This document shows, piece after piece, positions 20,999 through 48,333 of a stretch of 64,000 nucleotides of DNA. Positions within the stretch are counted from its first letter, which is position 1. Each line of letters starts with the position of its first letter. The DNA is from a virus. Lineage: Duplodnaviria; Caudoviricetes. The translations under genes were made by a program, and so were the position numbers. The DNA is taken from positions 13,903 through 77,902 of IMG/VR virus record IMGVR_UViG_3300047160_018490. One strand, 5' to 3'. The notes under the pieces were generated by a model that saw only the letters and a program-made list of their open reading frames with translations, was not told the DNA's origin and did not search any database.

Positions 20999-21017
20999 AA
21001 AAGGGAGCAATCTCCCT
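20999..21017 (-). terminator. short intrinsic terminator after the second capsid gene
   Basis: Minus strand AGGGAG-ATTG-CTCCCT followed by TTT; overlaps the stop codon. Confidence 0.45.
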
Positions 21018-22170
21018 ACTTGAGGATGATGTAGGGACTCACCATAGTGGTTCCATCCTGTAAGGTTATGGCAGATTGAACCTGGGGCTTGCCATCTGCC
21101 CGCAACCAGACCCTGAAGTCGGTCTGGTTTGTCTTGAAGGCTGGTCCCAGAGTGTCTGCATCAATGAGGACTTCCTGCCTCATACCGACTACGTAAAGCC
21201 AGGGATCGAAGAAGATCAGGTCACCAAGAGAGCCCAGGGTGGACAACTTCTCTGTGATGAAGACCGGCCTGGTGAGGAGGCTCCCCACCTGGCCGCCCTC
21301 ATCGTTGGCCTCCACGTTCAGGAAGAAGTTGGCCACCTGGATGAGCTGGGCAACACACGCAGGGGAAGAGGCCCAGATGGCGTTCTTCCAGGAGAAAGGC
21401 AACATCGCCGCTGCCATGTTGGCGATATCTACCTGGAGGATCTGGCTTGGTGTGTGCCTGGATACTGTCTTGGCTGCGGGGGCGTTGATGATCCCCAGAG
21501 GCATCTGGTTGGAGGTGCCTGTGCCCTGGAGGAAGGCATATTCCAGATACCACGCTGCCGCCATCCCGAAGAGCTTCAGGAGGTGATCCTCGCCCTCCGT
21601 GTTAGCGTCCTCCAACCAGTCATTAGAGACCGTGGCGTAGCCCAGAAGGTCCCACGCTGTGAGGGGGTCACTCCTGAACTTGGGCTCTGTTTCGGAGGGG
21701 GCTTGCGAGGTGCCCCACTTGAAGATGAGCCCACCGAAGAAGGGAGAGGTGGCTGCCGACTGGGCCGTCTCGGCATCCACCTTTGGACACTCAGTGGTGA
21801 GGGAGCGCATGGGGATCACATGCGCTCGCGGGTAAATGAAGCTGTTCTCGCTGATGGCCTGGAGGAGCTGGTTGGTAAAGTCCGTAGGCACCAGGTAGCC
21901 ACCAACGGCACCCGAGGTCTCTCCCATCGCCGCCTTCTGCACCTGGCCGGGAAGGACACGGAAGGGGCTCCGATAGTGCTTCTGGAGGATGTCTTCTCCA
22001 GCCATTCGGGTGGGTTCAGAGAAGGGGTCCCTGGCAGCCCTTACAGCCTTCAGGAAGCCTGTGAAGGACCTCCGGTGGGGAACCTCCAGAGGGGGAGCGC
22101 CAACCGGGCCACCCCCACGAACCAGGGGGGGACGCATGTTTGGCTTCATTGGCAGTGTCGATACGGCCAT
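21016..22170 (-). CDS. second HK97-fold major capsid paralogue
   Basis: KAAMGETSGAVGGYLVPTDF..., GTGTSNQMPLGIINAP, LLTRPVFITEKL..GDLIFFD...RADGKP; colinear with the 517 aa capsid protein. Confidence 0.9.
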   Translation of the reverse strand: MAVSTLPMKPNMRPPLVRGGGPVGAPPLEVPHRRSFTGFLKAVRAARDPFSEPTRMAGEDILQKHYRSPFRVLPGQVQKAAMGETSGAVGGYLVPTDFTNQLLQAISENSFIYPRAHVIPMRSLTTECPKVDAETAQSAATSPFFGGLIFKWGTSQAPSETEPKFRSDPLTAWDLLGYATVSNDWLEDANTEGEDHLLKLFGMAAAWYLEYAFLQGTGTSNQMPLGIINAPAAKTVSRHTPSQILQVDIANMAAAMLPFSWKNAIWASSPACVAQLIQVANFFLNVEANDEGGQVGSLLTRPVFITEKLSTLGSLGDLIFFDPWLYVVGMRQEVLIDADTLGPAFKTNQTDFRVWLRADGKPQVQSAITLQDGTTMVSPYIILK

Positions 22171-22352
22171 CAGTCCTTTTTCTTCTCCCTGCGAGCCTTC
22201 AGTTCCTCCTCTAACTCCTTTTCAGAGAGCTGGGAGAGGAGATGCTGTCTGAGATCGTGGGCCCTATCGAGGAACCTCCGTGCCTCCTCTTCAGAGGGGA
22301 GGGAGTCCTTCGGGGAGTTATCCCTGTCGATGCCAAACTTCGCGTGAGCCAA
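22170..22352 (-). CDS. small charged hypothetical protein
   Basis: 60 aa ORF whose stop abuts the capsid-2 start (TGATG). Confidence 0.45.
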   Translation of the reverse strand: MAHAKFGIDRDNSPKDSLPSEEEARRFLDRAHDLRQHLLSQLSEKELEEELKARREKKKD

Positions 22353-22375
22353 GGAAACCTCTATCAGAAAGGGAG

Positions 22376-22443
22376 GCTGCTGGGGGGCCTGACACCCACC
22401 CTCTCCGTGGGGAATGGCCGGACACCACTCTCCCCCCAGCAGC
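22376..22443 (-). terminator. 12 bp perfect inverted repeat downstream of the major capsid gene
   Basis: GCTGCTGGGGGG (22376-22387) and CCCCCCAGCAGC (22432-22443) with a 44 nt loop; CTCCCTTTCT follows on the minus strand. Confidence 0.45.
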
Positions 22444-22475
22444 GGAGTCCCTTGAATGTACCCCTTGAGAGGTTC

Positions 22476-24029
22476 TCAGTTTAGCACAACAAACGGCGAG
22501 ATCGTCCATCCCGCCTGGTCCGTGATGGCGTTGTTCAGCCAGGGCTTGCCATCGCACCGGGCGATGACCCGCCACGCCAACTGGTTGTTGCGGAAGAGGT
22601 AATGCGGGCTGACATCAATCTGCATGTCCAACCGCATGCCGATGACGTAGCGGCTCCAATCCACCAGCATCACGTCGCCCTTGGTTCCAAGCTGCGGCAG
22701 CTTCTCGGTGAAGAAGACTGGCAAGCCGTTCAAGAAGGCGTTGGGGAGCTTGGAGGCAGCGGGGCCCCTGTCCGTGGTCATCGTGGGATTGACCCACACG
22801 AGGCGGTTGCCGGCCGGGAAGGACGAGGATGGAGAGGCGGCGTTGCCCCAACCTCCATCGACCATCATCAGGAGCTGAGGCAGCACGCTCTGATGCATGA
22901 TCCAGGCGGCGTCATCCCAGGAGCGCACCTGGAGGTGGGCCAGCATGGTGGCCGCGTCCTGGTAGAGGAAGCGCGAGGACTGGAGGCGGCCCTGGGAGAT
23001 GGTGGCCGGGGCGTTGAGGATGCCCAGAGGCATCGAGGAGCCGGCTCCCTTCCCTTGCAGATAGGCAAACTCCTTGTACCAGGTAATCGCCTGGCCAAAC
23101 AACTGCGTCAAAAGGGCGTCCAGCCCGATGCCGTTGTCTGCCAGGAGCTGGTTGCTGGAGACGCTGTAGAGGACCAGGTCCCACGCGGTCCAGACACTCT
23201 GCTTGAAGGCTGGCTCCGTCTCGTTGATGGTGGCCGCTTCAGGCTGCCACTGGGCCAGGATGCCGCCGAAGTACGGAGAGGTGCCGCTGGCCTGGACAGT
23301 GGTGATGTCCAGCATCGGCCACTCAGCCGTGCGGGAATTCATTGGCACCACCTTGGCGCGGGGCTCGATGAAGCCATCCTCGGCCGCGATGGTAAGCAGC
23401 TCCTGCATGAACTGCGGGGGGATCAGGTATCCACCCGTCTGGCCGGAGCCTTCTGCGAGGGCTGTCTTGCGCCTCTCATTCAGGAGTACCTGCCCATTGC
23501 GATAGGTGGGCACCCCCACAGTGGCAGCCTTGGCAACGGTGACGAAGCCGTGCTGCCTCTCAAACTGCTCCATGCCGTAGTTTTCGCCAAACAGTCCCTG
23601 CGACTTGGCGATGGCCTGGGCATCCTTGTTGCCTGAGAGGGCTGCCATCGAGACCAGGGCCGGGCCGATGCCGGAGATGCGAGGTCTGCCACTCTTCCGC
23701 ATCCCGAACAGGTCCACTGCGGCAGGTGAGGTATAGGCCCCACCCAGGGCCTTCAACTGCTCCACCGGCCAATCGCGGTAGGAGGACTGCCGCCACCTCT
23801 CATAGGAGCGGTCGATGTCCCCGATGATGGCACCCGGAGATGGGCCAGCAGGGGTGCGAGCCATCTTCTCAACGGCTTTCTCGATCTGGTCGAGCCGCTG
23901 GAGGGCGAGAAGGTTGATGTCCGCAGGGGGACGAGGGGGCTGCTGGGGCTGGTAGCCAGGACCACCAGGAGGAGCGCCCGCAGGACGGCGCTGGGGCGGA
24001 GGAGGGGTACGAGTTGGGACGGTCGCCAT
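22476..24029 (-). CDS. HK97-family major capsid protein with an N-terminal delta/scaffold domain
   Basis: KTALAEGSGQTGGYLIPPQF, GKGAGSSMPLGILNAP, FLNGLPVFFTEKLP..GDVMLVDWSRY..RCDGKP; about 188 aa N-terminal extension. Confidence 0.92.
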   Translation of the reverse strand: MATVPTRTPPPPQRRPAGAPPGGPGYQPQQPPRPPADINLLALQRLDQIEKAVEKMARTPAGPSPGAIIGDIDRSYERWRQSSYRDWPVEQLKALGGAYTSPAAVDLFGMRKSGRPRISGIGPALVSMAALSGNKDAQAIAKSQGLFGENYGMEQFERQHGFVTVAKAATVGVPTYRNGQVLLNERRKTALAEGSGQTGGYLIPPQFMQELLTIAAEDGFIEPRAKVVPMNSRTAEWPMLDITTVQASGTSPYFGGILAQWQPEAATINETEPAFKQSVWTAWDLVLYSVSSNQLLADNGIGLDALLTQLFGQAITWYKEFAYLQGKGAGSSMPLGILNAPATISQGRLQSSRFLYQDAATMLAHLQVRSWDDAAWIMHQSVLPQLLMMVDGGWGNAASPSSSFPAGNRLVWVNPTMTTDRGPAASKLPNAFLNGLPVFFTEKLPQLGTKGDVMLVDWSRYVIGMRLDMQIDVSPHYLFRNNQLAWRVIARCDGKPWLNNAITDQAGWTISPFVVLN

Positions 24030-24040
24030 GTTCGGTTCTC

Positions 24041-24200
24041 CGGCAGGATGCCTCCCCGAAGGGTCGGCAGGATGCCCCTAAGAGAGGGGCCAAAAAGAGA
24101 ACCCGCGGGCCTGGCAGGGTTGAGGGAACTCTTCGGGAGAAGAAGAGCTTGCCAGGGACCGCGGGTTCATGCCAACTCCTGAGAGCCTTCTCTCAGGTTG
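24041..24200 (-). ncRNA. candidate structured RNA in the capsid-gene leader
   Basis: Nested stems GAACCCGCGG/CCGCGGGTTC, CCTGGCA/TGCCAGG and CTCTTC/GAAGAG (24099-24168); hairpins at 24074-24090 and 24178-24197; direct repeat CGGCAGGATGCC at 24041 and 24065. Confidence 0.4.
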
Positions 24201-24232
24201 AACCGAACACCCGCTTGCGGGATAAAGTTAGA

Positions 24233-24418
24233 CTACTTCTCCTTAGCTTTCAGTGTCACCCACTTTGCCGTCACGCTACCATCCTGGAGGTCCAGTTCCA
24301 GGGTCATCCGGCCTGTCACTTTCCTCTCCCTGGCGCCCATGAGGTGCCGGAGGAGGAGGTTGAGGAGGTCCCGGTCTGCCTGGGTCAGTTCTTCCCTGAG
24401 CGCTGGTGTACTCGCCAT
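24233..24418 (-). CDS. small DUF2292/YezD-like protein
   Basis: KVTGRMTLELDLQDGSVT pattern; probable start MASTP at 24418. Confidence 0.45.
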   Translation of the reverse strand: MASTPALREELTQADRDLLNLLLRHLMGARERKVTGRMTLELDLQDGSVTAKWVTLKAKEK

Positions 24419-24446
24419 ACAGGTTACGGGAGGGAGAGAGCCCTGT

Positions 24447-24893
24447 CTAGACCTCCGAGGGAATGCCAGGACCATCTCCTGAGTGAGCGTCCTCCCGAAG
24501 AGGAGGCTTCTTCACTGCGGCCTTCTCCAGATTGTGAGGATGCCTGGGGTGATCCAGGAAGCGGTTACTGGCGAAGGTGCCTTTCACCAGGTCCTCGATG
24601 CCCTGGGCGCTCATCTCTCCTTCCCTCCTGGCCACCGGCCTGCCATCAACGAAGACCATGATGGTGGGAAGGGCGTGGACGTTGTACTGCGAGGCCACGC
24701 TCTCCTGCGCGTCGGTATCCAGCCTGGCAAAGTGCGCCCTCTCCTTCATGGACTCGGCCGCCTCCTTGAAGGCAGGCTCCAGGTTCTTGCAATGAGGACA
24801 CCATTCCGCGAAAAAGTCCACCACGCAGCAGGGGGGCTCCTTGACTGCTTGCTGGAAGCTGGCGGAGTCCAGTTCTTTGACCAGGTCACTCAT
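24447..24893 (-). CDS. thioredoxin-fold protein with a WCPHC active site
   Basis: VVDFFAEWCPHCKNLEP...FARLDTD...YNVHALPTIMVFVDG. Thioredoxin fold, but the active-site dipeptide is not the canonical GP, so no symbol is given. Confidence 0.92.
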   Translation of the reverse strand: MSDLVKELDSASFQQAVKEPPCCVVDFFAEWCPHCKNLEPAFKEAAESMKERAHFARLDTDAQESVASQYNVHALPTIMVFVDGRPVARREGEMSAQGIEDLVKGTFASNRFLDHPRHPHNLEKAAVKKPPLREDAHSGDGPGIPSEV

Positions 24894-24955
24894 GTCTTCC
24901 TCCTACAATTTCCTGATGCCATCGAAGAAGATACCCGGGAGTATCTTGCTCTCGA

Positions 24956-25605: not shown

Positions 25606-25614
25606 GAGAGGCTC

Positions 25615-26085: not shown

Positions 26086-26290
26086 GGTAATCTCTCCTGT
26101 TGAAGGACCAGTAACTACCTCAGCAGAGGGAAGAGAGGAGAGGTTTCTTGTACCCGGAAGGTTCCCGCACGGTATCCACCTTGCAACCGGGCCCTGAGTC
26201 CTCTCCCTCCCCCAAAAGAGCCAGTACCTCAGATCACGGAACGGAGGATGCCCCCAGGCACTACTCCAACCGAGGTCTGGCCCCTTCTTC

Positions 26291-29273: not shown

Positions 29274-29277
29274 ACTC

Positions 29278-30748: not shown

Positions 30749-30751
30749 CTA

Positions 30752-36000: not shown

Positions 36001-39000
36001 TTTCCTCTTCTTCAGGGGGTAAATGGAGATCGGGGTCCTCGTACATGCTTTCGTAATTACGCGCAATACCACCAGCATACTCTTCCGTCATGGGGCCAGT
36101 AACTGGGCCTTCTCCGTGGGAATGAAACGCTGGGTGTTCCCGCGTTCGATAGACGCTGTAGCGCCCTGGGCGAACTGGTGATAGCCTGGTCTCGTAGAAC
36201 CTGAGTTCTCCTGTCTTGGGGTCCGCCTTCTCTTCCACCCCCTCCAGACCCTTGTTGGGCTTCTCCCCTGCCTCCTCCAGCGAGGAGTAGCACACGCGAT
36301 GGGCTTTCCCCGCGTCTGCACCCTCTGCTTCCAGATCAGCGATGCAGCGCTCCATCCTCTCCGTGTGGTAGTGGTGGGGGTGCTCCACGTTGGGCTTCCG
36401 GATCTCTTCCCCTTCGAGGTCTTTCTCTTCCTCTGCTGGGTTGAGAGGAGTGCAGTTAGGAGAGAGGTGCGCCATCCGGTTGATGGACTCCTGGGCCCGC
36501 TGGTTCTGCCTCTCTGCCTCCTCTTCTGCCTCTGCCTGCGTGCAGTGGAGAGACCACCCCACTCCTGTACGGCGGGATGCTACCTGGTAAAGCTCCGGCT
36601 GCTCCTCGCTGGGGCGGACGTAGAAGTGTCCTGGGCTCTCTTCTCCTCCTTCTGCCTTCTCCCGGGGAATAGGAGATACCCTGTTCTCGTAGGGGTGGTT
36701 GAGGTCAGGGTTGTGACCCACCAGGAAGCGGTACGCAACACCTTGGACGCGCTTCCCTGTCTTGGGATCTACTGCTTTCTCCTCCTTACCCTGATCCCAC
36801 GCCTGGAAATACTGCTCGCCAGTCCAATGCCCTCTACCAGGATTGTCTGTATAGCGGTCAGCATGGGCATTCAACTCATCCGCTCGCTGCTGGGCTTCTT
36901 CGAGTTCATATCGGCCCACGTCGCGGTTTCCATCTGGATCGACAAGGGAGTGCGTGCCATCCTCATTGGGCACAACCCTCCAGTGGAGTGATTGCTTCCT
37001 TCTCTGCAAGCGGTCCCACAGCCTCTTGCACTTCTTCTCCGCGATGGTGCCACTCTCATCCTCTGGCACCTCCGTCTGATCTCCCCACTTCTCGAACTCC
37101 CTGACCTTCTCTGCTTCTGCCTCCGCCTCCGCCTGCGTCTGGTGAGAAGAGGTAAACCACACCTCCCCGTTGGCCCGTGTGTGCCGCACCAGGTAGGGAT
37201 ACACCGTCCTCCCTGGGCGGTAGATGACATCTACCTTCTTCTCCACTTCCAGTTCAGGAGTGTCCCCAGTTTCGATGTCCGAGCCCTCTCCAGGGTTAGT
37301 CTCGGGAGGGATGCCTGTTCTATCAATCTCTCCAGGAGTGCCCCTTCCTGCTTCCATGTCGGCCTGGTTGGCGTCCTTCTCAGAGGGGTGAGGTGTCTCG
37401 TCTACTACTCCCATACTCCCGTGCCGCCAATTCAATTGGCTTGTGCAGTACCTTACCTCCTCTGGGGTGGCAGCGTAGTAGACATGCCTACCAGTGCGGG
37501 CATGAACGATCTCATAAGGGAGGTGCTCTATACCCGTTCTCCTGGCCTCGTAGAGGGGCTCGTCCTGGCCTGTAAGGGGGTCTTCTGTACTGTCCTTCTC
37601 TTCAGGAGCAGGGAGGTTGACTCTCGGGTTATCGGGCCCTTGCAGCTCGCCACTCATGATCCTCTGGTGGGCAGCCTCCTGGTAATCGCGGGCCATATCC
37701 TCCGCTTCCCAGTGGGGGTGGAGGTGAGATGCCAGGCGCCCTCTACCGCCCTCTGGATGAGATCCAGTCCTATATAGAGCGTCGAAGTCCTCAATGCTGG
37801 GATGCTCCCGCAGTTCATAGAAGGGCTCCATCTTCTCCCCCGTCTTGGGGTCCAGGGCCTTCTCCTCCCTCTCCGGCTCCATCTGGTACCGCGGTGGCGT
37901 GCCTTCGGTATCCCGGACCCACTGGCGGTTTTCCTCTGCATGCCTGTCCTGCATTGCCAGCTCGTCCAGGGAGTTCTCGGCAAACTGCTCTACCTGCCTG
38001 TGGGCCTCTTCAGGAGTACGGAACCCCCCTGTGCGCAATCCAGCCTGTCCTAGAGGGTGCTGCTCCGTGCGGACGATCTGGTAGGCGCCAGGGATGTGTG
38101 GGTCCTCCTCCACGCGCCACCAGGGATGATTCTGCTTCTTCATCTCCTTGTTAGGCGCCCAGATCGTCTCCAGCAGGTTCTCCTCCGCAATGTGAGCAAT
38201 CGTCTCCGCCTCGTGCTGCGTCCTGTAGCCAGTCAGGCTTCTCGCATCCCTGCCCTCGGGGTGGAACATGGTAGGGATGACATCGAAGGTCCCTGGGTTC
38301 TCCTCGCTCTCCTGGACGTGGTAGAAGGACTTTTCCACTGCTCCTGAGAGAGCATTCTCCTCCTCTGCAGGGATGTTGGCCGCCTCCGTCCTCTGCTGGC
38401 TTACCAGATTGGCGTAGTGCCTCCTGGTGGCTTCCTGCTGCCTGGCGTGCTGAGTGGCCCATCTCGCTCCGGCGGCGGCCTCCTCATGAGATGTGTAGCC
38501 ACCAAAGCCTGAGTAGCGCCCTGCCCTGCCATGAGGATGGTGCTCCGAGTAGTGAAGGTCATACCTCTCAGGGTCGTCCTCGTTCTGCTGCACCGTGAAC
38601 CAGGGAGGAGAGGTGTCTTTACTCACACTACCTCCTGCAACCTTCTGGCTCTCTTCCCAGGTAGCCTGATCCATACGGGACTGGACGGTGTCCTCGTGCA
38701 TATCTCTGGCAAGTTCCCTGGCCTCTTCCGGAGTGAGGTGTCTGTGCGGTACTCGGTCTGAGGGATATTGGTGGATATTGGGGTGGTCAGGGGTCCGAAA
38801 GATCCGTGGGCGCCCGTTTTCGTCCCTGACTCCGTAGTAGGGCTTATCGTGGAAGCCCTTCTCCTCCTCATTCCTTCTGTGGATGTCCTCTGTCCTCAGA
38901 GAGACATTCTCTGCGAGCTGTGCCTGGATGCGGTCTATGACTTCCTGGGCCTCCTGAGTGGAGGTGTAAGGGCCACCACCCCAGATGGGCTTGCCCTGAT

Positions 39001-42000
39001 GGTCTCTGCCACCCAAGGGGTGCTCGTCCGTCCTCCAGATGTCATGGGTGCCTGGTACGTTGGGGCGCTCCACAATCTTGTACCAGGGCGGGCGGTCTTT
39101 TCTCACTCCTGAAGAGAGGGCATCCTCGTGGTGCTGTGGGGCATCCCACTGCTCGGGGTCTTCATTTCTAGACCATTCCAGTTGCCGTAACCCGGCTTCG
39201 GCACTGGCTTCCTCCCTGGAGTCACGGGTTGTGAGGGGGTAAGACATCAGTCCAGGAGTGGCGTAGGGATGGTGCTCACTCCTGTAGACTCCCCATCTCC
39301 CTTCAGGGGTCTGGCGGACGTGGAAGTAGCGGTATCCTTTCTCCACTCCTTCGGAGAGGGCATGTGTAACAGGAAGACCATGTCCATGACCGAGGTCATC
39401 CGTTCTTACCTTCTCCAGGTCCTGTGCGCCATCCAGGGCGTCTTCCTCGGTGTCATAGCGGGTGGGTCCCACGGGAATGGTTTGATCCCCAGACTGGAAG
39501 AAGGGATGAGACTCAGTGCGGAAGATTCCATAACCCTCCTGATAGGGCTTGACCTCGAAGAAACCCTTCTCCACTCCTGAAGAGAGAGCAGCCTGCAAGT
39601 ATTGAGGTGGGGGATGGTGTAGCGCCCTATCTTTGATACTCTCCGTTGTATCTTCCACCAGAGACTGAGCCTCTTCCCTGCTTCCCAGGAGGTAAGTGTT
39701 TACCCGCATTCCAGGTCTTCCCCAGGGATGGTGTGCAGTACGGTAAACACTCCAAAAAGTCGGGTGGTCCTCGTCTTCCCGTGCCTCGTACCACGGGCCT
39801 TGCTTCTCCACCCTCTCCTCTAACCCCCTTGCTATCCTTTCCCCCGGGGGAAGCATGGAGAATGGATGCTCTCTGGGGTTGCCTGTGCCTCTGGGGGCGT
39901 CATCATACTCCGGGCCCAAAGACTCCATGTGCCTGGCCCAGTCTCTGGCCTCTCCGTGATCCAGGAAGGAGAGATGAGAGTGCCTCACTCCTGAAGGGGA
40001 GACAACCTGGAAGTGACCCATATCCGGGTCATGCTCCACGCTCCACTTACCGGATGGTTTGTCTTCTATTGGAGGGACGTAGGGGGCGGTGGCGCCTGTG
40101 CTCTCTTCTTCCTTTCCTTTCTCCACACCTCCAGAGAGGGAGTTCTCCTCGACCTGGAGAGGGATGTCACTGATCCCTGGTTCTTCTTCACCGCGCCACA
40201 GGTCGTACTGTCTCTGCCCAGCAGCGATCCAGGCATCCTCGTGGCTGGCATGGGTGGAGAGAGGCGCCTCATCAGGCCCATGAGGGCCGTATGGGTGGCG
40301 CCCACTTCGGTAGACTCCATACCCTCCTTCTGGGGTTGGGAGGACCAGGTAGTGGCTGTAGTTCTTCTCCACCTCTTCTCCCTGATAGACGATGGAGCCG
40401 TATGTGCCCTCAGAAGGCTCCGTCTGGCCGCCGAGGGAGTTCTCCTCGATGTCCGGAACATTCACGCCCCTGTTTTTTCCCTCCTTGTACCAACCATCTA
40501 CTGCGTCCTGGAGTCTGTCTGCTCTCTCCTGCTGCTCTTCCAGAGTGTTGGGACGGAAGGGGGTTATTCCCTCTCCCATAGGATGGTGCTCAGTACGATA
40601 TAGCAGGTACAGCTTACCACCTGGGTTCTGTACAATCCGGTAGTAGGGCCTCTGGAGGGCTTTCTCCACTCCCTCCAGGGCGTCCTCCAGATCCATCCTC
40701 TCCATGAGGGTCCTGTGTGTCTGATCGTGCAGCCTCTGGGCTTCTTCCTCGGCAAGACCCTGGGTGGTATGGTCTGGAGACTCGGGAGAGGAGAGTCTTC
40801 CCTTGGGGTGGTAGGAAGACCTCCATACGTCGTAGTTCCCAGCCGGGCGCTGGTGGACCTCGTAGAAGTAGTGTGGGGATAGGTCCTTCTCCACACTGCC
40901 TTCCAGGGCATTCTCCTCATAGGCTGGAAGGCCCTGCCCCATGCCCAATCTCTCTGTCTGCATCCTCACCTCGCTAGCCGTTAGCTCGCGTGCCATGTCG
41001 TGGGCAGAACCCTCCTCAAGGCCTCCGATGATAACCATTCCTGCGTCACCACCTGGGTGGGTGGCAGAGCGGCGGACCTCGAACTGACCCTGGCGCCGGC
41101 CTTCGTGGACCTCATAGTAAGAAGGTGGTTCAGGAGTACCCTCATCTTTCTGCACACCTCCCTCCAGAGCGTGCTGCACAGGAGGGGTGTAGGGGAGGCC
41201 CTGACTCTGGCCTGCCCAGTCTGTCTCTATGCTACGAGAGCGTGCAAACCTTCTCGTCCTCTCCTGTGCGTCTGCCTCTGCCTGCTCTGGATCCTGGAAG
41301 TGGGTGATCCTGGCCTCTCCATAAGGGTGCTGGGAGGTACGCCACACCTCATGCCTCTCCCCTCTGGAGCGGACCTCGTAAAGGGGAGGAACTCCGGTGT
41401 CTTTCTCCACCCACCCAGAGAGGGAGTGCTGCACAAGGGGTGTAGGTGGTAGACCCTGCTCTCTTCCCAGTCTGGACGTGTCCATGTTCTGGTAGCGAGT
41501 GGCCCCCAGACGGTAAATATCACTTATAGTCCTGGCACGTTCGCCTGCCTCTTCCTGGGTTGAGTAAGGACCCATACCAAGGTCCTCCCCACGAGAGGGA
41601 GCGTAGGGGTGCTCCTGAGAGCGGCGAACACGCCATCCTTCTCCCTCCACCTCGTAGGGCTCATAGAACTGGGGGAGCTTCTCCAGGGCGGTGGCTACCT
41701 CCTCAGGAGTGGCACCAGCTTTCTCTATACTTCCTTCCAGGGAGTATTGCTGTATGTGAGGGGGTTGGTTGACTGGTAGACCCTGGTTTTGCCCCAGTTC
41801 GTCTGTCAGTCTCCGCTCCCACCTTCCTGCGTAGTGCCTGGCATCCTCTTCCAGGTGAAACCTGGCCAGGGGGGAGTCTCCGTGTTCGCCAACCATCGAG
41901 GTTGCATTCCAGGGGTGGTTTGCTGTCCGGAAGACGCCATAGCCGCCCGCATGCGGGCGGACCTCGTAGAAGGACTTTTCCACGCTGCCTTCCAGGGCGT

Positions 42001-42229
42001 TCTCCTCTGGAGCTGGTGTCCTCCGGTGGCCGCCTTGGTTCACGTTTGCCTTGTCCTCATCCTCGTAGCTCTCATCGAGCTGCCTGGCTGCTTCCCTTGC
42101 AGCATCCTGCCCCCAGCGTGCAGGAAAGACCATGCTCTCCCCCATATAATGCAGGGCCGTCCTCCAGACCTCCCAGCGCCCTGCTTCCTGGTTGTAACGA
42201 GGCTCATAGGTAGGAGATGCTTCACTCAT
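33062..42229 (-). CDS. giant 3055 aa modular repeat protein, putative internal-head polyprotein
   Basis: Single uninterrupted ORF. About 25 modules of YEVR..x..YGVYR(T/S)..HP...T.EEA...A and about 8 modules of P(D/E)E.W.....W..L.Q..R, joined by ..(A/S)LEG.VEK or EEEK linkers. Confidence 0.9.
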   Translation of the reverse strand: MSEASPTYEPRYNQEAGRWEVWRTALHYMGESMVFPARWGQDAAREAARQLDESYEDEDKANVNQGGHRRTPAPEENALEGSVEKSFYEVRPHAGGYGVFRTANHPWNATSMVGEHGDSPLARFHLEEDARHYAGRWERRLTDELGQNQGLPVNQPPHIQQYSLEGSIEKAGATPEEVATALEKLPQFYEPYEVEGEGWRVRRSQEHPYAPSRGEDLGMGPYSTQEEAGERARTISDIYRLGATRYQNMDTSRLGREQGLPPTPLVQHSLSGWVEKDTGVPPLYEVRSRGERHEVWRTSQHPYGEARITHFQDPEQAEADAQERTRRFARSRSIETDWAGQSQGLPYTPPVQHALEGGVQKDEGTPEPPSYYEVHEGRRQGQFEVRRSATHPGGDAGMVIIGGLEEGSAHDMARELTASEVRMQTERLGMGQGLPAYEENALEGSVEKDLSPHYFYEVHQRPAGNYDVWRSSYHPKGRLSSPESPDHTTQGLAEEEAQRLHDQTHRTLMERMDLEDALEGVEKALQRPYYRIVQNPGGKLYLLYRTEHHPMGEGITPFRPNTLEEQQERADRLQDAVDGWYKEGKNRGVNVPDIEENSLGGQTEPSEGTYGSIVYQGEEVEKNYSHYLVLPTPEGGYGVYRSGRHPYGPHGPDEAPLSTHASHEDAWIAAGQRQYDLWRGEEEPGISDIPLQVEENSLSGGVEKGKEEESTGATAPYVPPIEDKPSGKWSVEHDPDMGHFQVVSPSGVRHSHLSFLDHGEARDWARHMESLGPEYDDAPRGTGNPREHPFSMLPPGERIARGLEERVEKQGPWYEAREDEDHPTFWSVYRTAHHPWGRPGMRVNTYLLGSREEAQSLVEDTTESIKDRALHHPPPQYLQAALSSGVEKGFFEVKPYQEGYGIFRTESHPFFQSGDQTIPVGPTRYDTEEDALDGAQDLEKVRTDDLGHGHGLPVTHALSEGVEKGYRYFHVRQTPEGRWGVYRSEHHPYATPGLMSYPLTTRDSREEASAEAGLRQLEWSRNEDPEQWDAPQHHEDALSSGVRKDRPPWYKIVERPNVPGTHDIWRTDEHPLGGRDHQGKPIWGGGPYTSTQEAQEVIDRIQAQLAENVSLRTEDIHRRNEEEKGFHDKPYYGVRDENGRPRIFRTPDHPNIHQYPSDRVPHRHLTPEEARELARDMHEDTVQSRMDQATWEESQKVAGGSVSKDTSPPWFTVQQNEDDPERYDLHYSEHHPHGRAGRYSGFGGYTSHEEAAAGARWATQHARQQEATRRHYANLVSQQRTEAANIPAEEENALSGAVEKSFYHVQESEENPGTFDVIPTMFHPEGRDARSLTGYRTQHEAETIAHIAEENLLETIWAPNKEMKKQNHPWWRVEEDPHIPGAYQIVRTEQHPLGQAGLRTGGFRTPEEAHRQVEQFAENSLDELAMQDRHAEENRQWVRDTEGTPPRYQMEPEREEKALDPKTGEKMEPFYELREHPSIEDFDALYRTGSHPEGGRGRLASHLHPHWEAEDMARDYQEAAHQRIMSGELQGPDNPRVNLPAPEEKDSTEDPLTGQDEPLYEARRTGIEHLPYEIVHARTGRHVYYAATPEEVRYCTSQLNWRHGSMGVVDETPHPSEKDANQADMEAGRGTPGEIDRTGIPPETNPGEGSDIETGDTPELEVEKKVDVIYRPGRTVYPYLVRHTRANGEVWFTSSHQTQAEAEAEAEKVREFEKWGDQTEVPEDESGTIAEKKCKRLWDRLQRRKQSLHWRVVPNEDGTHSLVDPDGNRDVGRYELEEAQQRADELNAHADRYTDNPGRGHWTGEQYFQAWDQGKEEKAVDPKTGKRVQGVAYRFLVGHNPDLNHPYENRVSPIPREKAEGGEESPGHFYVRPSEEQPELYQVASRRTGVGWSLHCTQAEAEEEAERQNQRAQESINRMAHLSPNCTPLNPAEEEKDLEGEEIRKPNVEHPHHYHTERMERCIADLEAEGADAGKAHRVCYSSLEEAGEKPNKGLEGVEEKADPKTGELRFYETRLSPVRPGRYSVYRTREHPAFHSHGEGPVTGPMTEEYAGGIARNYESMYEDPDLHLPPEEEENALEEGVEKAPKVEGEEEQGAVVTANPGHPYWDVEPTEEGAHAVTPSEHHPLRRNIENPQNPLPPHQTAEEAHAHARRLQEGMWATMTGTARARRGRGVQNRPARNEQLPGIEGKAIHDLRTGRPATWYHMVEREDEPGTFDVHRSPQHPAGMTHDPVFVAQNIDEANDWIGDMHYQLAHSAGYRRLDAEKGVQKQPEGNPAITANPGAPYYEARPHHEQPGRYGVYPTEFHPHFGPEGTFDPEHPYFFGSAGDHDTLAEAQAHADELNRGRTINEAEDAPLRPPAHIRPGINEQIPGIGEKVAPQYRRLKARLERRKEEGQPFRRAPDEVWESERRYREDRGSGSGRKWENLTQGQRDLVPGMVRDPGFHPSEQSEIQEYPEWEPLEEEKAPRSHDEAWESARRRGTTGLHWRDLNQNLRDYYAGLRQHTGYVDPYDEDTPPEEEEGEGERGSPLGENEPPEWAYPEEEEKAPRTPDERYQTSRHQSQERYGRTGSEGRPWEGLSQSTRDRQATRYAHEEDEGPHRAEATVVSDFEEEKAPRSLDDWYESFRRRHPIGYFGPREPWEEISQTGRDVLQGVSPETGFHPEPAHHSEHPSHLEYPEWEEYQPGEHERFLEEGKASITPDEVWETHRRHDIDREALNPGVHVRPTWSEMSQGYHEGCRHPLPTPRHHSEASEDEEYPEWEEHTPGPFEREEYYEGVEDEEKQSSNPPPRSPEERWESHRRYWEEQHPQHPLTPWEGLSQGERQSNRQYFQMVGDPGPHPSEHTVEPEEEEKAAHDPYYEAWEHDARNPKPPTSEPYWEEWEHPPSSSPGEKVDPYWEEWEKAEGEEEEEHLPAETPYNDPSERYGRASEYLAEHYPEIGPGAAWDRMPQGERGHIADLYSHLPHGALFGEGGEEEENALEGDVEKQPEEEYHNDAEPDPMTRWENARAAHPIQDPNHPNYPRPWHELTQEARTSIAAFYEHLPHGYLYGEE

Positions 42230-45200
42230 ACCCCTATCCTCCTTGCGAGGGCCTCGATGCGATGGAGGAGTTCAGGAGAGAAGGCTTTATCAGATGGCTT
42301 TGGGGTTTCTCTGTACTGCCGGTTGTGACGCTCCACCCAGTCCAGGAGCCCACCCAGGTGACTCGACTGTGACCACAAGGCTTCACCACTGGGCCTGTGG
42401 ATGATCTGGTAGAGGCCACTCAGGTGAGACTCCTCATGGGGACGCACCTCGTAAATGTCCTCTGGGTCCTCTACCCAGGTAATATCTTTGGGGTCCACCT
42501 TCTCTATGCTCTTCTCCTCCTCCACCTCTCTCTGAAGGCTCCTGATGGTTGCGCCTGGGCCCTGGGGGATTTCCTCTGCCCGCAGAGGTCTCCTTCTTGG
42601 GGCGCCTCCTCCTGCTTGCGGTAGAGGAGGAGGAAGAGAAGCAGGAGAAGGAGGTGGAGTCTTCTCTGGGGCGCGCCTATTCGTGTGCAGGAGGAGGTTA
42701 CTCGCTGCCTGGTTGTGCAAGTGGCTTACGTAGGAGTTGGCCCTATCCAGGGTGTCAGTCCTTACAGCCGGCTCATCACTGGCGCCCATAGGGTGATGTT
42801 CACTCCGGTGAATCCCGTACCCACCTTCTGGGTGGTCCCTTACCTCGTAGTAGGGCATCTCCGGTGGCCCTGGCTTCGATGCTGTGGACGGTTGTGGAGG
42901 CTCTTCTCCCTGACCCGCGCCCACGTCAAAGGGCGCGTCCTCAGGGTTCTGATGCACGAGCGCTGTGGGCTTGGCTGGACGGCGGGGTAGTGGTGGCGGT
43001 CCCTTCTGCAAGCTCTTCATGGTCTCTGCCTCTGTAGTGAGCTTGTTTGCCAGGGCCCTCTGGAGGCGGTCCCTGTTCTCTTCTGCTCTGTACCAGTCCG
43101 TCCACGCTCCTACGGGTGGGCCACCAGTAGGGGGTGCTCCTGAAGGGTGATTGGAGGTCCTGAAGACCCCGAAGCGGTCGTTCTCCGTGGGATGGGGGAG
43201 GACCTCATAGAGGGCGGGGAAGTCCTTCTGGATGGCCTTGTGGTACTCGGCGGTATCGGCTGTCTCATCAACGTAATTGGCATGGAGTCCCCTGGCAAAT
43301 CGGTGAGCCTCCTCTTCCGTTCCCGTATCTAGGATCGGATACCCCTCTCCAACACCGTAGGGGTGGCTTTCCGTGCGGTAGACACCAAACTTACCATTCT
43401 TCATAGGGCGGACCTCATAGTAGAGGGCCTTCCTGGCTGCCTTATGCTCTTCCTCCCGGACAGTGCGCAGGTTCATGTAACGGGCGTGCATTGCGCGGGC
43501 ATACTCTGCAGCCTGTGCCTCATGATCCGTCTGATAGACCGGCGCCTCTTCAGGACCCCAAGGGTGAGTGTCTGTACGATAAACTCCATACAGGGGAGGG
43601 TCATCATTGGTAGAGCGGACCTCGTAGATGAGTTTCTTCCTCACTCCCTTTTCAGGAGTAGACTCTCCTCCCTCCCATGCCCGCAGAGTGCCTGGGGCGT
43701 CCCAGTAGGCACAGCAATTCCTCTTGTTGACTGGCTGACCCTTGATGCGCTTCTCCTGGCAGATGCCGCCCTGGTTGTACTGGCAGTTACCGCAGTTGCT
43801 GCCCTCCACTCCTTCCCCGTAGGTGATGAAGTCCGCCGCCTGTAGAGCTTCAGAGGAGACCTGGGGAAGCTCGCCACCCTGGGTATCGAGGGCCTTCCTC
43901 GTTTCACTTGGAGAGCCTTCGGCGGACTTCCCGATCTCGTCAAGGATAGCGTGTGTATCTAGATAGCGAGCATGAAGACGCCTGGCTTCTGCGTAGGCTT
44001 CCTCCTCCGAGTGTGTTTCATAGATGGCATAAGGGTACTGCTGCTGCTGCGGGTGGCTTGGCGAGCGGTGGACTCTGTAAAGGGTAGAGCCCTCATCAGG
44101 AGGCCGCACCTCGTAGATGAGGGCCTTCTCCACCACATCCTTCTTGCAAGGGCATGCCTTCCCCCTGGAGCAATTCTTGCAGCCGCAGGAGCCCTTGAAA
44201 TGTTTTGGAATGCGGTGGAGGAACCCTGGATTGTTCTCTGAGTGCTCTCCTACAGGGTCCTCGCTCTCTTCAGGATGGGGAATAAGATCCTCTGGAGGGT
44301 CTATACCCTGAAGTGCTTCCCCAAACGTGGGAGACCTTGTGTCACCTTCCAGCCTGGCCAGTTCCCGAGAACGCCGAGCTATCCTAGCCTCCTCGGATGC
44401 AGAGGTATACTGAGGATCATATACCCAGTCTCTTGGGTGTCCGGACCCGAAAGCCCATTCCCTTTCATCTGTGGCAAAACCTTCTGGGGTGTATTCGTTA
44501 TGATGAGGTCCCACCCCTTCTGGCCTGTCTGCCTTTCTTAAACCTTTCTTGTCCTCTCCAGAAGTAGGAGGGTCCACATCACCTTCCAGCACCTCTCTCG
44601 CTTGCATCTCCCGAGAACGCTGATTGATGCGAGCCCTTTCACTAGCCATGCTGATTGGGGGAATATCGTGGCGCCATTCCTCTGGATTGGGGCCATAGGG
44701 AGGGTGCCAGTCCCAATCTTCCTCATGCTCACCAACAGTGCCCCATTCCGGGTCGTGCTCTGGCCTCCCTATCTCGTTGGGGTCTGGCTCAGGCTCAGAG
44801 GCCGCCTTCTCCTCGGGACCCTCTATCTTGTCCAGGTCCTCGGCCCTTCGGTTGATCCTCTCCATCTCCTCTTCAGGAGTACCCTTGGGATCACGCTGCC
44901 ACTGGTGAGAAGAGGACTCTCCGTAATCCCTGCTGGCCCGATCTGCGGTTGCCTGTGCCTGCTCCAGAGTAGTGCCAGGTGGCTGAGGTATGTCGTGTCC
45001 ATACTCAGTGTGTCTGATGTAGGTCCCGCCATTTGGGTACTGCCCCGCAGCCCAGCGCCCCTTCTGGAGGTCCTTCTCCTCCTCCTCGATGGGTCTCCCC
45101 TGCTCGTCTGTATCTTCCACAGCCCTCAGTGTCCCTGAGAGACGGTTTATCCTCTCCGTCTCTGCTTCATGAGTGGTGGGTGGTGCATTCCCCCCAATGA

Positions 45201-48200
45201 ACTCGAATGCTCCAGCCATGTGCCTCTGGTTCCCGCGATCTGCCTGCTGTTCTGCGGCTTCCTGGTTGGCAATGCCCTCATGGACTCGATTGCCAGTGTA
45301 GGTGTCCTGTATGTACCACTGGCCGGTGCCATCGTTGTAGGGTTGAGCCCTGTAGCGAGGAGCCTTTCTCACAGCCTTCTCCTCGGGCTCACTTTCATCC
45401 AGCTCCTCTGAGTGGCGTGCAACCCTCTCTGCCTCCTCCTGGGGACTACTCAATGGCTCTCCCTGCCAGGAGGAGGCCGGGTGAGATTCCATCTCGTGGA
45501 GCTTGTTAGCCCTGTCTGCACTGGCCTGGGCTGCCTCTCTCCCTCCTGGGTGAGGGTGGTTCCAACCTGTGTGTGAGTCATGGATGACAGTCCCGTGCCG
45601 CGGGTGGTCCTGAACTATGTAACGCTGCTTCTCTACCACCCCTCTCTCAAAAGGGGAGGGGCCCTCTCTTCTCCCTCTCTTCAGGCCCTTCGCCATCACC
45701 CCAGGGTAGCCCAGCCTTCCTCTCTCCCCGCGAGAGCGAAGGGGGTTGTAGTTGCTGCCCTCCAGTTGCAGCCTCGTGATGAGTTCCTTCTGCTCCTCCA
45801 CCTTCTTGAGGGCCTCCATGAGGGCCTTCTCAGGAGGTAGCCCATCGTGCTCTGAGAGGGACTCAGCAAACTTGGCAAGCTCGTAGCAGTGTGCTCCGGA
45901 ATAGCCTTCCGTCTTCGCCACCGCATGAGAGAGATGTTTAGGTGTGACCTTGGGCAGCCACTTCCTCAGCATCTCACTCCTGGCCTTCACCGTGGGGAGC
46001 CCAAACTCCAGCACGTCATGGAACCTCCCAGGGCGGTCAATGAGGGCATCTGGAAGGGACTCAGGGAAGTTGGTCGTTAGTACGGTAAGGACACCCTTGC
46101 TCCTTGCAATACCGTCCATCTCCGTCTTGAGGAGGTCGATGGTGGTGGGGTGAAGCCAGTTGTCAACGTCCTCCATGCAGATGATGGCCGGTGCCAGTTC
46201 CTTCGCCATCTCGAAGGCACTACCAATACCACCTACACTCCCAGCGGCGTGGAAGTCCCTGCTAGAGATCCAGATGAACGTGCCCTTGCTCTTGTTGCGC
46301 AGCACCCGCGAGGACATCGTCTTGCCAGTGCCTGGAGGGCCGGTAAGGATCACGCCTCTGTTGGCAAAGAGGATGCCCTTCTCATTGAAGAGATCCAATG
46401 TCCTTCTAAGGGAGGTCTTGTTGTGCTCCTCCAGGAAGACATCGTCCCAACCCTCCTCCGTGCGGGGGAGAAACTCCCCTGAAAGAGAGAAGGCTTCTCC
46501 TTTGAGGAAGTTATTCTCCCTCGCCCAGGTCCATGCTTTATCAATCACCTCCTGAGAGATGGGAGCTTCCTGAAGTCTGGTAAAGGCAGTCACCTTCAGC
46601 CCGTTCCAGGTGGGCTCGAACTTCAGGACGAACTTCTCTCCACTACCTCGAAAGGCGTTGTGAGGCCCTCTACCTTTCTCCTGGTAGAGAGGGCTTCTTC
46701 CCAGGATGCCCTTCCTGATCTGCAATGGCATGCCCCTCTTGATAGGAAGCATCCCCTCGAAGAAGGCTGTCCCCTGCACGAGGAAGGTATCTCTTTGGGT
46801 GGAGTTGAGCTGGATGGTCTCGTAGACAGGGGGCGCCTCCATGCCCTTGCTCTGGTAGCCCTCCTGGAAGTTCCTCACCTCTACCAGCTTGTACCCAGAG
46901 ACTGCGTGCTTGAGGCCAGTGAGGAAGGAGCCCAGTCTGGGAGAGGGAATGAGGGCGGTGTTCTGGACGAGGTCCTTTATCTCACATCCCAGGTACTTGG
47001 CCGCCACCCGGTAGATGACAGAAGCACCCACAGGAGGGGCATCCTCCATCTCCACTCCTGTATCGAAGGAGTCGAAGATAGAAGGGAGGGCCTTGTTCCA
47101 GCGCTCCCTTTTCCTTACCTCTCTCCCGGGGGAAATAGCATGCTCATGGTGTGGCTCATCACCCCAGTTGTACTCCTCTTCCTCCTCGGGGTCGAAGTGA
47201 GACATCCCCCCTTCCATTGCATCACTGGCACAGTCGTCACAGAAGTGCGCCTGGTCACTGGGCTCATCGTACTGGGGGTTGTACATGCGGGTGGTAGCAG
47301 GCCGGGTGCAGGCTCCTGAATGGTGGGGGCAGCCTGGGTCGTCACACTCGCAGGTTCCGAGGTTCTCATGTTCAGGAGTGTGTTGACCTCTGGAGCGCAG
47401 GAGTTGCTCCTCACCCTCGATGGGGATGGCGCCCTTCTCTACCTGCTTCTGAATGCAGGAAGAGGGGGAAGACTCCTGACCTTTCGTAACGATGGTGCTG
47501 CAAGGGACGCAGACGCCGCTGGGAGTCTCGCACCATCCATTCCAGCAACCAGATGCCTTTGCACAGTAGGGGAGCCACGCCTTCTGAAGCCTGGGAGACA
47601 TCCAGACCTTCTCCTGGTCATAAGCGTCCCTGATGGCTCCCTGGTTGCTTCCTACCCCTACCACAGACCATTCTGTAACGTCATACCTCTTGAAGAGCCA
47701 CCCAGGCGGCATGAGAGGAGGATGCTGCGGGTGGGCCTTCCCGCTATCGAAGTCCTTCAGACCATAGTGCTCTCCTCGCTCCCTCCTGTAGGCTTCGATG
47801 GGCACGAAGGCGATGCTGGCAGCGGAGAGTATCCTTCTCTTCACCTTGCCATAGATGAAGTCCGCATCCGGATCAGCGCGATCAAAGTAGCCTACTGCAC
47901 GTATCCGGTTCTCTTCAGGATAGACAGTGATGCGCCCATCGGGGGAGCGAGATACTCCAATAGGGATCTCCCACCCCTGCTGCTGGTGGCCGAAGAAGAT
48001 GACCGGGTTGCGTGCGTAGTTCTCCAGTTGGGCGCCCAGAGGCACCACCACGTCACCATCCCTATCCTCATCCAGGTTGGTGATGACGAAGGGGATGCTG
48101 CCTTCGTCATCGTTTGCTTCCCCTGGGAGAGCAGCTCCTGGAGTAACGAGGCCGAGGGTGTTTTCCTTCCCAAGCTGGACCCAGGAGTAGGCGGAGAGGG

Positions 48201-48333
48201 CCTTGGGAAGGGAAATGACCCCCCTCCGCGTCATCTCCTGGAGGGAGGTGTAGCGGTCCTGAACCTTGTCAATGACTGGGTGGAGGATAATAGGAGAGCC
48301 CTCAAGGAGAAAAGTGGGCAAAGAGGCTCGCAC
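42226..48333 (-). CDS. HK97-type prohead serine protease fused to an AAA+ ATPase and repeat modules (2035 aa)
   Basis: Protease: DRDGDVVVP, NPVIFFGH (His), LSAASIAF (Ser), EWSVVGVGSNQGA. ATPase: GVILTGPPGTGKT, IICMEDVD, TTNFPESLPDALIDRPGRF. The C-terminal region carries YEVR..YRT..HP modules. Confidence 0.9.
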   Translation of the reverse strand: MRASLPTFLLEGSPIILHPVIDKVQDRYTSLQEMTRRGVISLPKALSAYSWVQLGKENTLGLVTPGAALPGEANDDEGSIPFVITNLDEDRDGDVVVPLGAQLENYARNPVIFFGHQQQGWEIPIGVSRSPDGRITVYPEENRIRAVGYFDRADPDADFIYGKVKRRILSAASIAFVPIEAYRRERGEHYGLKDFDSGKAHPQHPPLMPPGWLFKRYDVTEWSVVGVGSNQGAIRDAYDQEKVWMSPRLQKAWLPYCAKASGCWNGWCETPSGVCVPCSTIVTKGQESSPSSCIQKQVEKGAIPIEGEEQLLRSRGQHTPEHENLGTCECDDPGCPHHSGACTRPATTRMYNPQYDEPSDQAHFCDDCASDAMEGGMSHFDPEEEEEYNWGDEPHHEHAISPGREVRKRERWNKALPSIFDSFDTGVEMEDAPPVGASVIYRVAAKYLGCEIKDLVQNTALIPSPRLGSFLTGLKHAVSGYKLVEVRNFQEGYQSKGMEAPPVYETIQLNSTQRDTFLVQGTAFFEGMLPIKRGMPLQIRKGILGRSPLYQEKGRGPHNAFRGSGEKFVLKFEPTWNGLKVTAFTRLQEAPISQEVIDKAWTWARENNFLKGEAFSLSGEFLPRTEEGWDDVFLEEHNKTSLRRTLDLFNEKGILFANRGVILTGPPGTGKTMSSRVLRNKSKGTFIWISSRDFHAAGSVGGIGSAFEMAKELAPAIICMEDVDNWLHPTTIDLLKTEMDGIARSKGVLTVLTTNFPESLPDALIDRPGRFHDVLEFGLPTVKARSEMLRKWLPKVTPKHLSHAVAKTEGYSGAHCYELAKFAESLSEHDGLPPEKALMEALKKVEEQKELITRLQLEGSNYNPLRSRGERGRLGYPGVMAKGLKRGRREGPSPFERGVVEKQRYIVQDHPRHGTVIHDSHTGWNHPHPGGREAAQASADRANKLHEMESHPASSWQGEPLSSPQEEAERVARHSEELDESEPEEKAVRKAPRYRAQPYNDGTGQWYIQDTYTGNRVHEGIANQEAAEQQADRGNQRHMAGAFEFIGGNAPPTTHEAETERINRLSGTLRAVEDTDEQGRPIEEEEKDLQKGRWAAGQYPNGGTYIRHTEYGHDIPQPPGTTLEQAQATADRASRDYGESSSHQWQRDPKGTPEEEMERINRRAEDLDKIEGPEEKAASEPEPDPNEIGRPEHDPEWGTVGEHEEDWDWHPPYGPNPEEWRHDIPPISMASERARINQRSREMQAREVLEGDVDPPTSGEDKKGLRKADRPEGVGPHHNEYTPEGFATDEREWAFGSGHPRDWVYDPQYTSASEEARIARRSRELARLEGDTRSPTFGEALQGIDPPEDLIPHPEESEDPVGEHSENNPGFLHRIPKHFKGSCGCKNCSRGKACPCKKDVVEKALIYEVRPPDEGSTLYRVHRSPSHPQQQQYPYAIYETHSEEEAYAEARRLHARYLDTHAILDEIGKSAEGSPSETRKALDTQGGELPQVSSEALQAADFITYGEGVEGSNCGNCQYNQGGICQEKRIKGQPVNKRNCCAYWDAPGTLRAWEGGESTPEKGVRKKLIYEVRSTNDDPPLYGVYRTDTHPWGPEEAPVYQTDHEAQAAEYARAMHARYMNLRTVREEEHKAARKALYYEVRPMKNGKFGVYRTESHPYGVGEGYPILDTGTEEEAHRFARGLHANYVDETADTAEYHKAIQKDFPALYEVLPHPTENDRFGVFRTSNHPSGAPPTGGPPVGAWTDWYRAEENRDRLQRALANKLTTEAETMKSLQKGPPPLPRRPAKPTALVHQNPEDAPFDVGAGQGEEPPQPSTASKPGPPEMPYYEVRDHPEGGYGIHRSEHHPMGASDEPAVRTDTLDRANSYVSHLHNQAASNLLLHTNRRAPEKTPPPSPASLPPPLPQAGGGAPRRRPLRAEEIPQGPGATIRSLQREVEEEKSIEKVDPKDITWVEDPEDIYEVRPHEESHLSGLYQIIHRPSGEALWSQSSHLGGLLDWVERHNRQYRETPKPSDKAFSPELLHRIEALARRIGV

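Follow-up and report, generated by a model that had tools for sequence, protein, structure and literature searches.

Maturation of capsid and head-internal proteins by one prohead protease acting on one short motif is already known (PMC10052503). In T4 the internal proteins and Alt are cut by gp21 after L/I-x-E, while the inner-body and ejection proteins of phiKZ and SPN3US are cut after S/A/G-x-E (PMC10052503, PMC7411985). K103 of the HK97 capsid protein is the last residue of a 103-residue scaffold domain that is removed (PMC10275583), and the cuts measured in the maturation of the phi12 capsid protein and of SaPIbov5 Ccm, R128|L129 and K87|Q88, have a basic residue at P1 (PMC8569155). The present analysis concerns the head module of an uncultured tailed phage (Caudoviricetes), contained in a stretch of 64,000 nucleotides, here called the window, which covers positions 13,903 to 77,902 of the 77.9-kb IMG/VR virus record IMGVR_UViG_3300047160_018490. 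Its subject is the placement of lysine (Lys) in two giant proteins, a 2035-residue polyprotein with a protease domain at its N-terminus and a 3055-residue protein built of small modules, and in the capsid proteins encoded nearby. An earlier note on this DNA had read that placement as a cleavage code shared across the head proteins. In our view the protease probably does cut after the Lys residues of linkers and capsid proteins, dicing both giant precursors into modules that would survive because they lack a P1 residue.

The system shares with HK97 a protease of the same family (gp4; MEROPS/Pfam S78) with the same catalytic His and Ser, and a capsid protein in which the HK97 fold follows an N-terminal scaffold-like extension, the boundary Lys lying within one residue of K103. 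Unlike in HK97, the protease forms the N-terminus of a polyprotein that also contains an AAA+ domain, the capsid proteins come as two paralogues, and about 5,000 residues of modular predicted substrate, of a kind not packaged by HK97, present the site some 50 times. Within the literature searched, we found nothing on the specificity of the HK97 or T5 proteases beyond K103. T4 and phiKZ/SPN3US are similar in employing one prohead protease and a short motif for capsid and head-internal proteins of the head module. They differ in that the P1 residue predicted here is Lys rather than Glu, in that two giant tandem arrays of an orphan domain take the place of separate genes, and in that the absence of the P1 residue would distinguish the products predicted to survive; packaging, too, is a prediction here. 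As is the case for protease-processed head-internal proteins, the genes of the precursors lie in the head module and carry the motif of the capsid site. The phi12/SaPIbov5 system again combines an HK97-like head module with a basic P1, in that case through a herpesvirus-like protease, but it accepts Arg, unlike the code predicted here, and has no polyprotein cargo (PMC8569155).

A further comparison is with the polyvalent proteins of Iyer et al. (2017), in which an embedded peptidase was proposed to release the modules, an assemblin-like peptidase being among those listed (PMC5512222). These too are very long, multi-module phage proteins. However, their assemblin-like peptidase is always C-terminal and their modules are enzymes (PMC5512222), whereas here, and in almost every one of the 150 best homologues, the peptidase stands at the N-terminus, and the modules of this phage are two small orphan domains, neither of them enzymatic, in some 30 copies. 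The 2035-residue protein has only protease and AAA domains besides its modules, the 3055-residue protein is without a Pfam match, and the paper on polyvalent proteins defines no cleavage motif (PMC5512222). What appears to be new, judged from sequence, is therefore the combination of a Lys code in an HK97-type enzyme N-terminally fused to its predicted substrate, about 50 orphan mini-domains, and near-total exclusion of the P1 residue from them.

The 2035-residue polyprotein is encoded at 42226..48333 (positions are those of the window, and all head module genes lie on the minus strand). It comprises the protease, Cys-rich spacers, an AAA+ ATPase, about 14 Lys-free modules and a conserved C-terminal tail; its real start may be some 15 codons downstream of the listed GTG, where its homologues begin. 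Residues 1-300 gave no match to PF04586 even at E≤10, nor was there a match elsewhere in the virus record. The same 300 residues have 2580 homologues at E≤0.001, nearly all of them situated at the N-terminus of proteins of 600-2100 residues, and 22 of the 39 homologues that were aligned match PF04586 (Peptidase_S78), the best with E=2.6e-8. Comparison of the protease profile with HK97 gp4 by hhalign yielded a probability of 95.9% (E=6.2e-9 over 117 columns) and paired H116 and S173, in the contexts FFGH(116) and AAS(173)IAF, with H65 and S114 of gp4, in FFNH(65) and GMS(114)VGF. Across the 39 sequences H116 never varies, and the conservation of S173 is 90% or higher. An AlphaFold2 (AF2) model of the domain, with a predicted local distance difference test score (pLDDT) of 75.7, superimposes on T4 gp21 (5jbl_B) with Z=10.7 and a root mean square deviation of 3.0 Å over 143 of 164 residues; for comparison, the next unrelated structural match has Z=5.0 and the Epstein-Barr virus protease Z=4.8. 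Searches of PDB sequences with the domain or its profile produced nothing meaningful. By profile alignment and model, then, the N-terminus of the 2035-residue protein (approximately residues 60-260; 47554..48156) is a divergent prohead serine protease of the HK97-gp4 (S78) type, fused ahead of one module array, and it would be expected to be proteolytically active and to cleave after Lys. In the model, D90 and E221 are candidates for the lining of its S1 pocket. No close cultured relative of the phage was found, the best protease match being 29% identical and the best capsid match 34%.

Between the protease and the modules lies the AAA+ ATPase core (residues 661-778; 46000..46353; PF00004, E=4.8e-16), a pairing of unfoldase and protease reminiscent of Lon/FtsH. 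Protease and AAA protein are separate genes in the related locus L003 (3786-7418), and distant homologues in loci L015 and L016 carry an AAA domain. A Cys knuckle of the form C.CK.C….K.C.C is found directly before a Lys site at residues 1382-1403 of the 2035-residue protein (window ~44125-44190), and similar knuckles precede Lys sites in several relatives (L001_1025, residues 296-311; P0061; L003_1210; L006, 15105-16520). This recurrent element may be a small zinc-binding spacer.

Modules were delimited with two hidden Markov models (HMMs). The first, iterated from a single unit of about 55 residues, defines module A, which has 21 copies in the 3055-residue bead-string protein (33062..42229) and five in the module-rich C-terminal part of the 2035-residue protein (residues 880-2035; 42229..45696). 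The second defines module B, with about seven copies in the C-terminal fifth of the 3055-residue protein. Both proteins contain further Lys-free blocks. The scarcity of Lys within modules of the 3055-residue protein and its clustering at their junctions, which the earlier note had seen by eye, is borne out by counting: Lys accounts for 9 of the 1567 residues in HMM-defined cores (0.57%) against 69 of the 1488 outside (4.64%; odds ratio 0.12, p=1e-13). No other of the 20 amino acids has so strong a skew between core and outside in this protein, and Arg, His, Tyr and Phe are skewed in the opposite direction. The ratio K/(K+R), which is 0.055 in module cores, reaches 0.414 in 27-30 proteins encoded elsewhere in the window (p=7e-26). 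Counting Lys-free stretches of 40 residues or more gives 35 in the 3055-residue protein, covering 2506 of its 3055 residues, and 14 in residues 880-2035 of the 2035-residue protein, where they cover 896 of 1156 residues.

The remaining Lys residues are placed with some precision. A Lys lies no more than 8 residues upstream of 27 of the 32 module cores (expected 19%, p=1.6e-15) and no more than 16 residues upstream of 31 of them; there is no enrichment of R, E, D, A, G or S upstream of these 32 cores. The sequence around Lys is likewise non-random, with [VE][EQ]K occurring 26 times against 2.8±1.6 in shuffled sequences, and the context V/I/R/E-E/Q/R/T/L-K accommodating 42% of the Lys residues of the 3055-residue protein but 6% of background Lys. 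The junction strings previously listed are present in the 3055-residue protein (VEK|S at K85, IEK|A at K170, VEK|D at K276 and K448, VQK|D at K361, EEK|A at K2467, K2548 and K2616) and in the 2035-residue protein (VRK|A at K990, VVEK|A at K1403, ARK|A at K1635), whose C-terminal modules are bounded also by sites such as VVEK|Q and IQK|D. Linkers of the 3055-residue protein follow the consensus EENALEGxVEK or EEEK|APR, and Lys is retained in all three of the unrelated linker types. An AF2 model of one unit, with 26 copies as the alignment, shows a strand-strand-strand-helix mini-domain and an unstructured linker ending in Lys (pLDDT 80 overall and approximately 90 in the core).

Module A contains an invariant His-Pro, and in module cores His (7%), Arg (10%) and Glu (13%) are unusually frequent; that the module may bind metal is a tentative idea. 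The module A fold had no Foldseek match at E≤0.001 and ESM Atlas scores were below 0.9, while the highest Z in an all-against-all structural search was 5.1, among generic small beta/alpha matches. Neither module was present in 151 protease homologues. The arrays had no homologue in two protein-database searches, nor in viral and metagenome contigs covered by a protein scan and a degenerate linker DNA pattern, among which the phage's own record may be masked.

Since the modules are homologous repeats, the pattern could in principle be a by-product of tandem duplication and composition, the copies having inherited an ancestral linker Lys and a Lys-free core. The G+C content of the genome, 59%, favours Arg over Lys, and both Lys sites of a 423-residue protein of the same module, described below, fall within one duplication. 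Nevertheless, we regard inheritance of this kind as very improbable. The mean pairwise identity of the modules is only 27%, and conserved linker codons differ at synonymous positions. A basic residue that is sporadic in its column of the module alignment is one gained after duplication, and such columns hold 104 Arg and 7 Lys (K/(K+R)=0.063, p=7e-17); newly gained basic residues are thus 94% Arg, even though AGA and AGG, which make up 55% of the Arg codons, are a single transition away from the Lys codons AAA and AAG. Other proteins of the same phage have a K/(K+R) of 0.41, and unrelated module and linker types obey the same Lys rule. Low identity, synonymous variation in linkers, gains that are mostly Arg and the prevalence of AGR codons together indicate that selection keeps Lys out of the modules. 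On this sequence evidence, exclusion of Lys is an actively maintained effect of selection at the protein level, in agreement with what the earlier note had supposed.

The same residue marks the boundary at which the capsid proteins would be matured. Major capsid protein 1 (517 residues; 22476..24029; PF05065, E=1.2e-31 from residue 199) has a 188-residue N-terminal scaffold-like extension and, by alignment with HK97 gp5, a predicted maturation site RRK188|TALAEGSG (K codon 23466-23468). The corresponding site in capsid paralogue 2 (384 residues; 21016..22170; PF05065, E=8.4e-27) is VQK79|AAMGETSG (K codon 21934-21936). Both sites had been proposed before, and the Lys directly preceding the conserved N-arm proves to be kept in 17 of 17 capsid proteins of the clade, two from the window and 15 from related loci (L001-L003, L005, L007 and L013-L016, whose proteases are 33-62% identical to that of the window). 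Examples of the preceding sequence are RRK|T, VQK|A, VRK|T, VTK|A, VEK|A, VSK|S, IHK|A and, again, VQK|A. MAFFT places the Lys before the N-arm one residue away from HK97 K103. It is missing from the N-arm boundary of four capsid relatives whose partner is a ClpP- or S49-type protease, so that Lys tracks the type of protease rather than the capsid fold. Right before the N-arm of both window capsid proteins the context is V/R-x-K, then a small residue and often Leu.

A third N-arm sequence occurs at the start of the scaffold-like protein that is encoded directly after the 3055-residue protein. As listed, its 659-residue open reading frame (31135-33114) begins at a TTG that lies within the final part of the 3055-residue gene. 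The ATG of MALNESSG (33058-33060; M-ALNESSGAAGGYLVP) is located 1 nt past the upstream stop codon and has GGAG 9 nt upstream. From these positions the preceding K very probably lies outside the protein, which most likely starts at this Met (31135..33060). The cleavage site K|MALNESSG of the earlier note is accordingly dismissed as an artefact of an over-extended reading frame. The 659-residue protein is homologous to the C-terminal half of the relatives' protease-fusion proteins (tblastn to the L001 and L002 fusions), and its mimic of the mature capsid N-arm (33013..33060; ALNESSG..GGY.VP) is found internally in 36 of 92 long homologues, for example at residue 516 of P0007 and residue 783 of P0021. 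There, conservation begins exactly at a Lys, which is at position -7 in 28 of the 36 and at -7 or -8 in 34, with nothing conserved upstream. The initiator Met of the 659-residue protein occupies the position of the relatives' Lys; after Met removal its N-terminus would consequently equal the product of the cut predicted after Lys in the relatives. The mimic may dock the proteins bearing it into capsomers in place of the capsid N-arm. At the opposite end, an amphipathic tail of the pattern …F..LKR.F.Q.TG… closes the 659-residue protein (31138..31212; …VLARIQALGRKIMQVTG…), the 2035-residue protein (42229..42288; …LLHRIEALARRIGV) and most of the homologous fusion proteins, and is a candidate capsid-targeting signal.

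In the mechanism that we propose, the S78 protease at the N-terminus of the 2035-residue protein would cut after exposed Lys in a V/E-x-K context. At the capsid proteins this would remove the N-terminal scaffold extensions. In the 2035-residue and 3055-residue precursors, which would be translationally coupled and packaged in the prohead, it would act on linkers that are predicted to be unstructured and to carry one or a few Lys residues each, typically as V/E-E/Q/R-K, and so would release some 49 Lys-free modules of 5-12 kDa. The modules would persist since selection appears to have replaced nearly every internal Lys by Arg, leaving no P1 residue. That argument needs an enzyme that takes Lys and refuses Arg, a specificity predicted from the sequences.

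A cut at some other bond of the linker, such as ALE|G, with Lys kept perhaps for an exosite contact or for later trimming, seems to us quite unlikely. It would be suggested by the commonest linker, EENALEGxVEK, whose sequence is similar to that with which the capsid N-arm begins (TALAEGS, ALNESS), by the Glu that is conserved five residues into the N-arm of most capsid proteins, and by the fold shared with T4 gp21, an enzyme that cuts after Glu. Yet ALE|G-like motifs are seen at 10 of 32 junctions where Lys is seen at 31, and they are absent from the linkers of module B and of the 2035-residue protein; they cannot, therefore, be the common denominator of the junctions, whereas Lys can. With Glu constituting 13% of module cores, a Glu-directed enzyme would gain nothing from exclusion of Lys. 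The protease, too, falls in the HK97 gp4 family; HK97 itself has Lys at P1, and phi12 has either Lys or Arg there (PMC10275583, PMC8569155). Finally, the natural N-terminus of the 659-residue protein is in register with K| and not with E|, and this coincidence of a gene boundary with the predicted cut favours K|. ALE|G, which the earlier note had offered as an alternative, is thus not sustained by the junctions.

The preference for Lys extends to the relatives. In the non-protease parts of 92 protease-fusion homologues, amounting to 73,390 residues, K[SA]L is present 288 times against 57±7 expected (5-fold) and V.K[SA] 177 times against 57±7 (3-fold), although conserved homologous sites inflate both counts, which do not represent independent events. 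The Arg counterparts, R[SA]L and V.R[SA], occur about as often as expected, so the contrast between Lys and Arg is clear. Taken with the gp4-family protease and the V/E-x-K context common to linkers and capsid proteins, this Lys-specific family motif lends partial support to the earlier proposal of a single Lys-directed protease, from which the supposed site at MALNESSG has to be withdrawn. We put forward more tentatively a wider reading, in which a Lys-specific V-x-K|[S/A]-L code would hold throughout a clade of over 2,500 protease homologues, and in which some 50 Lys-free mini-proteins from the two precursors, about 5,000 residues in total, would be loaded into the capsid and delivered to the host, possibly for anti-defence. 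The fusion proteins of relatives are Lys-rich (6-10%), as expected of a scaffold destined for degradation. Lys-free blocks were also considered as a general trait of these fusions; a first test was positive, but under controls scaled for composition Lys was no more clustered than Arg or Glu, and the idea was dropped.

Several observations weigh against Lys-directed dicing. Seven Lys residues of the 3055-residue protein precede Pro, a poor P1' residue for most serine proteases. Many Lys residues occur in the protease, AAA+ and mature capsid domains, from which it follows that Lys alone is not sufficient for cutting and that context or accessibility must also matter. Were the acceptance of Arg at P1 by phi12 (PMC8569155) shared by this enzyme, the Arg-rich modules would not be protected by loss of Lys. 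The 3055-residue protein has no recognisable targeting tail that would bring it to a protease confined to the prohead. As the module arrays are without detectable homologues, there are no orthologues in which their junction Lys could be compared, and in the relatives' fusions Lys-free runs stand out no more than runs free of Arg or Glu. Lastly, counts from repeat arrays and from homologous proteins are not fully independent.

The missing tail would sit comfortably with giant proteins that stay intact, as strings of beads acting for instance as scaffold, internal filler or chaperone client, the linker Lys being a docking or modification motif. Lys would then be excluded from the modules on other grounds, perhaps through avoidance of Lys-directed modification, of cross-linking or of a host defence targeting Lys; exclusion of Lys in evasion of Lys-directed modification is known in other systems. 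In addition, a J-domain protein and an AAA+ domain in the same operon hint at handling of long unfolded chains, and the modules have neither an enzymatic signature nor a known fold. We nonetheless think it unlikely that the chains remain whole. An intact chain gives no account of linker Lys residues whose context matches the maturation site of 17 of 17 capsid proteins, of the over-represented, Lys-specific V-x-K-[SA]-L across the homologous protease fusions, or of the gene boundary that replaces K| in this phage, and one of the arrays shares a polypeptide chain with the protease.

If cutting after Lys is indeed how these precursors are used, the cleavage specificity of a widespread and unstudied branch of HK97-type proteases would be readable from sequence, and exclusion of the P1 residue would become a simple genomic marker telling cargo that survives in the capsid from disposable scaffold. 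A phage head would, in addition, be seen to be filled with dozens of small proteins from one operon. A practical warning is that proteomics with trypsin or Lys-C would mask these K| termini.

The genes of the head module are arranged in the order portal, 423-residue protein, DnaJ, 2035-residue protein, 3055-residue protein, 659-residue protein, several small genes and the two capsid genes. The start of the module is marked by the portal protein (778 residues; 50981..53317; PF04860, E=8.6e-30, and PHROG portal families). It is followed by the 423-residue protein (49723..50994), which has no assigned function and no homologue in related loci and, like the 3055-residue and 659-residue proteins, matches no Pfam or PHROG family. 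The two VEK|QP sites previously pointed out in this protein are present, as EVEK|QP at K267 (50194-50196) and K340 (49975-49977), but the pair sits inside an internal duplication and does not amount to two independent sites. The J-domain (DnaJ) protein (216 residues; 49070..49720; PF00226, E=3.2e-20) is encoded between the 423-residue and 2035-residue genes, and its location beside the protease polyprotein suggests recruitment of host Hsp70 in assembly or in handling of the giant precursors. The 2035-residue and 3055-residue genes are joined by an ATGA overlap, and the 3055-residue and 659-residue genes by TAAGATG with a Shine-Dalgarno sequence. Frameshifting or read-through fusing the three genes was considered and found unsupported, as both junctions fit translational coupling.

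Two HK97-fold capsid paralogues are kept throughout the clade, being present in the window and in L001, L002, L003, L007, L013 and L014, one with a long N-terminal extension (approximately 150-190 residues) and the other with a short one (approximately 65-95 residues). The pair may reflect a division of labour between hexons and pentons. An Endonuclease_7 gene lies between the two capsid genes in L013 and L014. The portals of some relatives are fused to enzyme domains, 2',5' RNA ligase-like in L006 (2014-5085) and NUDIX in L014 (806-4270), and from such fusions the portal may be a carrier for packaged enzymes. A minimal version of the arrangement is seen in L005 (7996-15832 of a 577-kb ENA scaffold), which comprises a capsid protein, a 292-residue protein, a stand-alone protease homologue of 408 residues and, after these, two serine recombinases. 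This element adjoins groES/groEL in a bacterial chromosome and is perhaps a satellite or else a prophage in decay; REK|SAMGETSG occurs in its capsid protein as well.

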